Both the position numbers and the translations under genes were made by a program. Shown piece after piece: positions 2,264 to 50,579 of a stretch of 64,000 bases of DNA. Numbering within the stretch: the stretch's first letter is position 1; every line of letters begins with the position of its first letter. Origin of the DNA: Escherichia coli (lineage in GTDB: Bacteria; Pseudomonadota; Gammaproteobacteria; Enterobacterales; Enterobacteriaceae); the NCBI RefSeq assembly GCF_017348835.2, contig NZ_CP071375.1, one strand, 5' to 3'. The notes beneath the pieces are model-generated. The model made no database searches. It saw only the letters and a list, made by a program, of their open reading frames with translations, and was not told the origin of the DNA.

Positions 2264-3154
2264 TTACCACACAGCAGCCAGCAGCGTATGCGAGTCCGGC
2301 ACCATAAAATCAACGGACATCATCACCGAGAGGGCAGTGATGGCGATGATAGAGAAGCCGAACAGCTTGCGCGCCCAGATTCTGTCATCAGCAACTTTAT
2401 AACCGCGCAGGGCCATACCTAACCACCAGACGCTCACCGCCGCGGCGACCACCAGATATTTATATCCAGCGTAACCGCCAAGAGAGAGCATCAGCGTGGC
2501 AACGGCAAAGGCGATGATATACAGCGTGATGTGATTCTTCGCCACCGAAATGCCTTTTACCACTGGCAATACCGGAATGTTTGCCGCCTGGTAATCCTTA
2601 AAGCGGAAAATGGCGATGGCATAGGAGTGAGGCATCTGCCACAGGCTGAAGATAGCCAGCAGGATCGCTGCGCCGCTATCGAACTCGCCGGTTACTGCAC
2701 AGTAGCCAATCACCGGCGGCGCAGCGCCGGAGAGCGAACCAATCAATGTGCCGTAGACCGAGTGGCGTTTCATGTACAGGCTATAAACGCCGACATAAAC
2801 CACAAAGCCCATCACCCCCAGCCAGCAGGCCAGCGGATTCGCGCCAAACCACAGCAGCATAAAGCCAGCAATACCCAGCAAGGTGGCGTACACCAGCGAG
2901 ACAGCAGGAGAGATCAGGCCTTTAACCAGCACCCGATTCTTCGTCCTTTCCATCTTTCTGTCGATATCCCTGTCGATGTAGTTGTTAAACACACAACCCG
3001 ACGCCACAACCAGTGACACCCCAACCAGCGTGTAGATAAACAGGGGATAATCAATGCTGCCCTTTGAGGCCAGCAGGAATCCCCCAATCACCGAGATCAG
3101 GTTGCCAAAGATGATGCCTGGTTTCGTTACTTGCAGGTATTGCTTAAACATCAT
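2264..3154 (-). CDS. cyoE: Heme O synthase (protoheme IX farnesyltransferase) CyoE, 296 aa
   Basis: ORF-track 2264..3199 minus; start at [19 protein letters not shown] to match known protein. Confidence 0.92.
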
Positions 3155-3165
3155 AACCGCCGCTC

Positions 3166-6102
<2,937 letters not shown>

Positions 6103-12017: not shown

Positions 12018-12046
12018 CTTGAAATATGGTGATGCCGTACCCATAA
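12018..12046 (+). promoter_or_regulatory. Sigma-32 (heat-shock) promoter of clpP: -35 CTTGAA, -10 CCCATAAC-like
   Basis: Motifs match sigma-32 consensus (TTGAAA / CCCCATNT) with 15-16 bp spacer, about 80 nt upstream of clpP. Confidence 0.5.
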
Positions 12047-12125
12047 CACAGGGACTAGCTGATAATCCGTCCATAAGGTTACAATCGGTACAGCAGGTTT
12101 TTTCAATTTTATCCAGGAGACGGAA

Positions 12126-14149: not shown

Positions 14150-14180
14150 TTAACCATTCCCATACAATTAGTTAACCAAA

Positions 14181-14211
14181 AAGGGGGGATTTTATCTCCC
14201 CTTTAATTTTT
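14181..14211 (+). terminator. Terminator-like hairpin after clpX (AGGGGGGAT-TTTA-TCTCCCCT followed by T-rich run)
   Basis: Imperfect G/C stem followed by TTTAATTTTT. Confidence 0.45.
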
Positions 14212-14226
14212 CCTCTATTCTCGGCG

Positions 14227-14253
14227 TTGAATGTGGGGGAAACATCCCCATAT
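14227..14253 (+). promoter_or_regulatory. Sigma-32 (heat-shock) promoter of lon: -35 TTGAAT, 13-bp spacer, -10 CCCCATAT
   Basis: Near-consensus sigma-32 elements read about 85-110 nt upstream of lon ATG; coordinates consistent with the lon start frame. Confidence 0.7.
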
Positions 14254-14336
14254 ACTGACGTACATGTTAATAGATGGCGTGAAGCACAGTCGTGTCATCT
14301 GATTACCTGGCGGAAATTAAACTAAGAGAGAGCTCT

Positions 14337-16691
14337 ATGAATCCTGAGCGTTCTGAACGCATTGAAATCCCCGTATTGCCGCTGCGCGATGTGGTGGTTT
14401 ATCCGCACATGGTCATCCCCTTATTTGTCGGGCGGGAAAAATCTATCCGTTGTCTGGAAGCGGCGATGGACCATGATAAAAAAATTATGCTGGTTGCGCA
14501 GAAAGAAGCTTCAACGGATGAGCCGGGTGTAAACGATCTTTTCACCGTCGGGACCGTGGCCTCTATATTGCAGATGCTGAAACTGCCTGACGGCACCGTC
14601 AAAGTGCTGGTCGAGGGGTTACAGCGCGCGCGTATTTCTGCGCTCTCTGACAATGGCGAACACTTTTCTGCGAAGGCGGAGTATCTGGAGTCGCCGACCA
14701 TTGATGAGCGAGAACAGGAAGTGCTGGTGCGTACTGCAATCAGCCAGTTCGAAGGCTACATCAAGCTGAACAAAAAAATCCCACCAGAAGTGCTGACGTC
14801 GTTGAATAGCATCGACGATCCGGCGCGTCTGGCGGATACCATTGCTGCACATATGCCGCTGAAACTGGCTGACAAACAGTCCGTTCTGGAGATGTCCGAC
14901 GTTAACGAACGTCTAGAATATCTGATGGCAATGATGGAATCGGAAATCGATCTGCTGCAGGTTGAGAAACGCATTCGCAACCGCGTTAAAAAGCAGATGG
15001 AGAAATCCCAGCGTGAGTACTATCTGAACGAGCAAATGAAAGCTATTCAGAAAGAACTCGGTGAAATGGACGACGCGCCGGACGAAAACGAAGCCCTGAA
15101 GCGCAAAATCGACGCGGCGAAGATGCCGAAAGAGGCAAAAGAGAAAGCGGAAGCAGAGTTGCAGAAGCTGAAAATGATGTCTCCGATGTCGGCAGAAGCG
15201 ACCGTAGTGCGTGGTTATATCGACTGGATGGTACAGGTACCGTGGAATGCGCGCAGCAAGGTCAAAAAAGACCTGCGTCAGGCGCAGGAAATCCTTGATA
15301 CCGACCATTATGGTCTGGAGCGCGTGAAAGATCGCATCCTTGAGTATCTTGCGGTTCAAAGCCGTGTCAACAAAATCAAGGGACCGATCCTCTGCCTGGT
15401 AGGGCCGCCGGGGGTAGGTAAAACGTCCCTGGGTCAGTCCATCGCCAAAGCCACTGGGCGTAAATATGTCCGTATGGCGCTGGGCGGCGTGCGTGATGAA
15501 GCGGAAATCCGTGGTCACCGCCGTACTTACATCGGTTCTATGCCGGGTAAACTGATCCAGAAAATGGCGAAAGTGGGCGTGAAAAACCCGCTGTTCCTGC
15601 TCGATGAGATCGACAAAATGTCTTCTGACATGCGAGGCGATCCGGCCTCTGCACTGCTTGAAGTGCTGGATCCAGAGCAGAACGTAGCGTTCAGCGACCA
15701 CTACCTGGAAGTGGATTACGATCTCAGCGACGTGATGTTTGTCGCGACGTCGAACTCCATGAACATTCCGGCACCGCTGCTGGATCGTATGGAAGTGATT
15801 CGCCTCTCCGGTTATACCGAAGATGAAAAACTGAACATCGCCAAACGTCACCTGCTGCCGAAGCAGATTGAACGTAATGCACTGAAAAAAGGTGAGCTGA
15901 CCGTCGACGATAGCGCCATTATCGGCATTATTCGTTACTACACCCGTGAGGCGGGCGTGCGTGGTCTGGAGCGTGAAATCTCCAAACTGTGCCGTAAAGC
16001 GGTTAAGCAGTTACTGCTCGATAAGTCATTAAAACATATCGAAATTAACGGCGATAACCTGCATGACTATCTCGGTGTTCAGCGTTTTGACTATGGACGC
16101 GCGGATAACGAAAACCGTGTCGGTCAGGTAACCGGTCTGGCGTGGACTGAAGTGGGCGGTGACTTGCTGACCATTGAAACCGCATGTGTTCCGGGGAAAG
16201 GCAAACTGACCTATACCGGTTCGCTCGGCGAAGTGATGCAGGAGTCCATTCAGGCGGCGTTAACGGTGGTTCGTGCGCGTGCGGAAAAACTGGGGATCAA
16301 CCCTGATTTTTACGAAAAACGCGACATCCACGTCCACGTACCGGAAGGTGCGACGCCGAAAGATGGTCCGAGTGCTGGTATTGCTATGTGCACCGCGCTG
16401 GTTTCTTGCCTGACCGGTAACCCGGTTCGTGCCGATGTGGCAATGACCGGTGAGATCACTCTGCGTGGTCAGGTACTGCCGATCGGTGGTTTGAAAGAAA
16501 AACTACTGGCAGCGCATCGCGGTGGGATTAAAACAGTGTTAATTCCGTTCGAAAATAAACGCGATCTGGAAGAGATTCCTGACAACGTAATTGCCGATCT
16601 GGACATTCATCCTGTGAAGCGCATTGAGGAAGTTCTGACTCTGGCGCTGCAAAATGAACCGTCTGGCATGCAGGTTGTGACTGCAAAATAG
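14337..16691 (+). CDS. lon: ATP-dependent protease Lon, 784 aa
   Basis: ORF-track 14292..16691; start at [25 protein letters not shown]; Walker [10 protein letters not shown]; catalytic serine motif PKDGPSAG. Confidence 0.96.
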
Positions 16692-50499: not shown

Positions 50500-50528
50500 C
50501 TTGAAATTATTCTCCCTTGTCCCCATCT
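50500..50528 (+). promoter_or_regulatory. Sigma-32 (heat-shock) promoter of htpG: -35 CTTGAAA, 15-bp spacer, -10 CCCCATCT
   Basis: Near-consensus sigma-32 elements read about 50-80 nt upstream of htpG ATG. Confidence 0.7.
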
Positions 50529-50579
50529 CTCCCTCATCCTGTTTTTAACCTTAAAATGGCATTATTGAGGTAGACCTAC

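Follow-up and report, generated by a model that had tools for sequence, protein, structure and literature searches.

The published consensus for sigma-32 promoters of Escherichia coli consists of a -35 element TTGAAA (or CTTGAA) and a -10 element CCCCATWT. In dnaKp1, the reference sigma-32 promoter with a cryo-EM structure of the open complex, the two elements read TTGAAG and CCCCATTT and are separated by 13 nt, and the -35 element is preceded by the consensus C. K130 makes contact in this structure with the G's that pair with the upstream C's of the -10 element. The promoter of lon (lonp) is an already known, textbook heat-shock promoter. It was reportedly described by Cowing et al. 1985, Gayda et al. 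1985 and Chin et al. 1988, and Nonaka et al. 2006 are said to have described it as well, with lonp included in the RpoH regulon. A review states that lon expression in E. coli depends on sigma-32. A genomic SELEX paper on minor sigma factors contains nothing specific to lon, a Salmonella chaperone paper makes no specific statement about the gene, and the literal spacer string of the promoter gave no match in a literature search.

We analysed a stretch of 64,000 nucleotides of E. coli DNA (the window), in which positions 14227-14253, upstream of lon, carry the elements of such a promoter (Table 1). We identify this site as lonp, the sigma-32 (RpoH) heat-shock promoter of E. coli lon, with a probability of about 95%; the dependence on RpoH is taken from the review and from published occupancy. 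The locus is the same as that of the known promoter, the promoter sequence is without difference, and the transcription start and the sigma occupancy are as published.

The window is a segment of the E. coli chromosome colinear with approximately 444.5-508.5 kb of MG1655. The identity to MG1655 is 98.6% over 50 kb, which marks the strain as a non-K-12 E. coli, and between positions 14200 and 14290 there is no difference, so that the lon promoter region is identical. Window positions are converted to NC_000913.3 by adding 444551. For positions given in the older MG1655 numbering we added 776, which we take to be the offset between the two MG1655 sequence versions, the cross-check being the geometry at htpG and clpP only. 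The list of open reading frames opens lon at an in-frame GTG at 14292, upstream of the ATG that is used in the RefSeq annotation and here.

Table 1. Features of the lon promoter region and of the other heat-shock promoters in the window (window coordinates).
Feature	Position	Strand	Description	Basis
clpX-lon intergenic region	clpX stop 14149, lon ATG 14337		187 nt; contains the promoter	
Small RNA SraA (psrA/t15)	14170-14265	-	Rfam RF02029, full-length	106.7 bits, gathering score 56
clpX intrinsic terminator	14180-14212	+	Hairpin 14180-14204 (11-pair stem) and T run	Terminator scan
lon -35 element	14227-14232	+	TTGAAT; -35 to -30 relative to the published start	Read from sequence
lon spacer	14233-14245	+	GTGGGGGAAACAT, 13 nt	Read from sequence
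IS186 (IS421) insertion hot spot	14236-14249		GGGGAAACATCCCC; inside spacer and -10 element	BL21(DE3) junctions, literature
lon -10 element	14246-14253	+	CCCCATAT; -16 to -9; upstream C's are the sigma-32 'extended -10'	
Sigma-70-type -10 hexamer	14251-14256	+	TATACT; 18 nt after TTGAAT	Consensus scan, 9/12
lon transcription start	14262	+	A; 75 nt upstream of ATG	Published start table
lon leader	14262-14336	+	75 nt; predicted hairpin 14271-14301; invariant ribosome-binding region	
lon coding sequence	14337-16691	+	784 aa; 'lon: endopeptidase La'	ORF end; RefSeq; K-12 lon start 458888 = 14337
clpP heat-shock promoter	12018-12047		CTTGAAA ... aCCCATAA; start ~12054	
htpG heat-shock promoter	50501-50528		TTGAAATTATTCTCCCTTGTCCCCATCT; TTGAAA, 14-nt spacer, CCCCATCT	

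The lon promoter shares its elements and their spacing with dnaKp1. Compared with the published consensus, its -35 element agrees at 5 of 6 positions with TTGAAA, and its -10 element at all 8 with CCCCATWT. The base in front of TTGAA is a G in lon, in contrast to the C found in the consensus and in dnaKp1. All 39 lon promoters (position 14226 of the window, and 38 other species) have G or A here and never the C of CTTGAA. The lon promoter and dnaKp1 also differ in that the distance from the -10 element to the start is one base longer in lon, and in that the overlapping TATACT is a feature of lon that sets it apart. The preliminary description of this DNA had placed TTGAAT, a 13-bp spacer and the -10 element at 14227-14253, and direct reading returns the same coordinates. 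Its assignment of a canonical heat-shock promoter architecture is supported by the consensus match and the dnaKp1 spacing, together with the start, the sigma occupancy and the conservation described below.

Short promoter-like motifs are common, and the site might have been a chance match without function: with up to two mismatches allowed, 0.43 matches are expected in 64 kb. Even at this tolerance the lon site is the sole match in the window, and the exact pattern of 14 specified bases occurs once, against 0.00 expected from 100 dinucleotide-preserving shuffles. The match is also correctly positioned in front of a heat-shock gene and points towards it, the published table has a start and bound sigma factors at the site, and the motif is invariant across genera. 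We give a chance origin no weight. The generic pattern TTGAA-N12-16-CCCCAT has two matches in 64 kb versus 0.11 expected, a number that no shuffle reached, and the second match (50501-50526) lies shortly before htpG, which is likewise a classical heat-shock gene.

The promoters of htpG and clpP have the TTGAA ... CCCCAT architecture in common with lon. The htpG promoter differs from that of lon in its 14-nt spacer and in that sigma-70 binding is not recorded for it in the examined part of the published start table: its start, at 494300 in old coordinates, corresponds to window position 50536, which precedes the htpG ATG by 44 nt, and sigma-32 is the sole factor with binding listed there (PMC3923258). 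The clpP start, at 455829 in old coordinates, corresponds to 12054 and has 1303 reads in the same part of the table (PMC3923258), while the -10 element of clpP is a weaker consensus match than that of lon.

The start of lon transcription has been mapped experimentally. In the part of Table S6 of Cho et al. 2014 that was examined (PMC3923258), the dominant lon start is 458037(+), with 1744 reads and the transcription unit lon. The entry carries the ChIP-chip binding code 'DH' (sigma-70 and sigma-32), the motif code 'DNHF' and the final assignment 'DH'; the source is a genome-wide map rather than a comparison with an rpoH mutant. The table uses the older MG1655 numbering, and 458037 + 776 = 458813 in NC_000913.3 corresponds to window position 14262. 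Eight nucleotides intervene between CCCCATAT and this start, and by the same conversion the htpG and clpP starts each lie 7 intervening nucleotides after their own -10 elements. A start about 7 nt past the -10 element had been predicted from the sequence, and the strong published start, at 8 intervening nucleotides, agrees with that prediction. The same part of the table contains two weak plus-strand starts inside clpX, at about 13742 and 13926 in the window (457517 and 457701 in old coordinates; 82 and 166 reads), which are assigned to lon with sigma-32 binding recorded (PMC3923258).

The published occupancy raises the question of which sigma factor the site primarily serves. The hexamers TTGAAT and TATACT are 18 nt apart and score 9/12 in the consensus scan, and in the examined part of the Cho table the letter 'D' stands in both the binding and the motif column for lon (PMC3923258). 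Conservation points in the same direction. When 39 lon promoters were selected on TTGAA ... CCCCAT alone, CCCCAT was followed by A (38 promoters), T (39), A (35), any base, and T (34). T14256 is thus kept in 34 of the 39 although it lies outside CCCCATWT, and A14252, the other key position of the sigma-70 hexamer, in 38. Taken together, these observations could be read as evidence for an essentially sigma-70 housekeeping promoter with an incidental likeness to sigma-32 promoters. However, the four C's, which are dispensable for sigma-70, do not vary among the 17 genera and are the basis of the match in 38 other species, whereas as a sigma-70 promoter the site is only middling, with an 18-nt spacer and a hexamer matching at 4 of 6 positions. 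The published table also records sigma-32 occupancy here, and the review ties lon expression to sigma-32. We consider a housekeeping promoter with a fortuitous sigma-32 motif very improbable. The site is probably a dual sigma-32/sigma-70 promoter with one start, of which the sigma-70 part is less firmly supported, and the use of sigma-70 is best seen as an added property rather than an alternative. Because sigma-70 also binds the lon promoter, part of the transcription from 14262 is not sigma-32-dependent.

Conservation was assessed with one genome per species, in which a conserved coding pattern of the Lon N-terminus was located by scanning and the DNA upstream of it was examined. We aligned the 200 nt before the lon ATG from 17 genera of Enterobacterales, ranging from Escherichia to Arsenophonus and including Pantoea symbionts. 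The invariant columns of this alignment are TTGAAT, CCCCATAT, the ribosome-binding region AAGAGAGA...ATG, and two single bases. The 13-nt spacer between the promoter elements contains no gaps across the 17 genera, but most of its columns are variable; its length is therefore fixed while its sequence is not. A variable spacer of fixed length between invariant elements is what one classically expects of a two-element promoter. In the clpX terminator, the arms of the hairpin and the T run are also largely kept.

The motif extends beyond the aligned genera. Of the gammaproteobacterial lon loci, 112 had sufficient upstream sequence; TTGAA-N(13-15)-CCCCAT is matched perfectly (11/11) in 36 of them and at 10/11 in 23, while the reverse strand of the same 112 regions, used as a control, never exceeds 9/11. 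In a looser count without the length filter, 38 other gammaproteobacterial species have the perfect pattern TTGAA-N14/15-CCCCAT in front of lon, and the E. coli spacing is present in 34 of the 39 lon promoters (window included). Within E. coli, the 56-nt promoter region is uninterrupted in 5368 of 5424 complete genomes, and the remaining 56 of 5424 are without an uninterrupted copy.

The same stretch is covered on the opposite strand by the modelled small RNA SraA, and the conservation might be ascribed to this RNA, with its 5' hairpin GGGGA...UCCCC, rather than to the lon promoter. The full-length minus-strand match to its Rfam family is well above the gathering score, and the family was found at the same position in 8 of the 12 Enterobacterales genera tested (Escherichia, Citrobacter, Enterobacter, Superficieibacter, Mangrovibacter, Yersinia, Rahnella and Acerihabitans). 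SraA (psrA/t15) is listed in the literature as a small RNA between clpX and lon, it is mentioned in work on lon deletions, and one paper detected it in all conditions tested. The pattern of conservation nevertheless follows the promoter: it is its two elements that are invariant, whereas the spacer, which would form the hairpin, is mostly variable. Photorhabdus, Providencia, Arsenophonus, Rosenbergiella, Vibrio, Pseudoalteromonas and Rheinheimera yielded no sraA match at threshold, yet all of them keep TTGAAT-13-CCCCATAT or a near variant. SraA contains the reverse complement of the whole lon promoter and of the clpX terminator, and the strongly conserved letters of the RF02029 consensus correspond to the lon -10 element, the lon -35 element and the clpX terminator in reverse. 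On the minus strand, the scan returned no consensus sigma-70 promoter, and no sraA start near 14265 is present in the examined part of the Cho table (PMC3923258). Since the elements persist in genera without an sraA match and the spacer is variable, the conservation of 14227-14253 is explained by the promoter and not by the small RNA, which we regard as a very improbable origin.

We treat SraA as a separate antisense feature, outside the promoter mechanism. The 5' end of the modelled RNA and the lon start overlap by 4 nt, and the clpX terminator also scores as a terminator on the minus strand, with a hairpin and a T run. We can only speculate about how the RNA and the promoter coexist. Either polymerases at lonp and at an sraA promoter exclude each other, in which case SraA would be turned off when heat shock induces lon, or the 'SraA family' is under no selection for a function of its own, all its conserved letters being those of the lon -10 and -35 elements and the clpX terminator read in reverse; we hold this proposal to be rather unlikely. 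The same 27 bp accommodate three overlapping features: the sigma-32/sigma-70 promoter of lon, the IS186 target and the 5' hairpin of SraA.

IS186 inserts into targets of the form GGGG-N6/7-CCCC. The sequence GGGG-AAACAT-CCCC at 14236-14249 fits this consensus, and insertions are seen at the site. In BL21(DE3), an IS4-like IS421 element (IS186) lies between clpX and lon (1440-1500 and 2770-2850 of locus L124). The junctions read ...GGGGGAAACATCCC|IS (also written ...GTGGGGGAAACATCCC|IS) and IS|GGGGAAACATCCCCATAT, with the target duplicated, and the insertion splits the promoter, leaving the -35 element on one side and the -10 element on the other. The site that is occupied in BL21(DE3) is unoccupied in the window, so that the promoter of the window is intact.

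The isolate NZ_CP137696.1 has the same break at the lon promoter (2620-2660 of locus L001), and a junction in the same orientation was found in 7 genomes. In NZ_CP137696.1, IS186 is followed directly by entD and fepA (2650-4900 of the same locus), and lon has apparently been deleted next to the element together with the DNA up to entD; in K-12 the distance between the two genes is presumably about 150 kb. The laboratory-evolved strain BW25113 CHXR1G20, in which the match to the promoter region ends at 14248, was considered as another insertion and rejected, as the assembly has a run of N's over 14249-14265. These N's (1835-1851 of locus L123) are scattered exactly over the lon -10 element and start, and may reflect a mixed population at the hot spot.

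The hot spot is well known. The IS186 target at the lon promoter is attributed to saiSree 2001 in the papers that cite this work. Recurrent insertion of IS186 at this site, with a sharply lowered level of Lon protein, has been described in the literature, and laboratory evolution and selections for antibiotic resistance have repeatedly yielded the same insertion.

Downstream of the start, the lon leader may contain a hairpin. When the leaders were folded species by species, a hairpin was predicted about 10 nt past the inferred start in all 14 Enterobacterales leaders, in spite of their differing sequences. In five sequences from Escherichia, Citrobacter and Enterobacter, registered by hand, 48 of the 59 pair cells in the hairpin arms are kept, and in 5 cases both partners have changed with pairing retained. 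A consensus hairpin did not emerge when MAFFT alignments of the leader were folded with RNAalifold, because the alignment is out of register, and the fold of the E. coli leader is no better than that of shuffled sequences (z = 0.00). The predicted hairpin is therefore a lead only, and statistically insecure. Separately, the approximately 20 bases before the lon ATG (14316-14339, TAAACTAAGAGAGAGCTCTATG) are almost invariant in the 17 genera, which is far more than a Shine-Dalgarno sequence alone would require.

From established knowledge and the structure paper, we infer how the promoter is likely to work. Region 4 of sigma-32 would read TTGAAT, and regions 2 and 3 would read CCCCATAT, including its upstream C's, across the fixed 13-nt spacer. 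Promoter opening would then lead to initiation at A14262 and to transcription of the leader followed by lon. Misfolded proteins would titrate DnaK/J and thereby stabilise sigma-32, resulting in more transcription from lonp. The same -35 element, combined with the overlapping TATACT, most likely gives sigma-70 polymerase access to the same start and would account for basal expression.

The finding is correct but ordinary, as the promoter was known. A reading of the sequence without tools placed an experimentally mapped promoter to the base, which makes the site a useful positive control, and a mild interest remains in the overlap with sraA and in the leader hairpin. For the organism, the proposed mechanism would make lon output follow the abundance of sigma-32, so that Lon protease would rise with proteotoxic stress. 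The practical relevance of the site comes from IS186: B strains such as BL21 are Lon-deficient because the element occupies the hot spot formed by the spacer and the -10 element.
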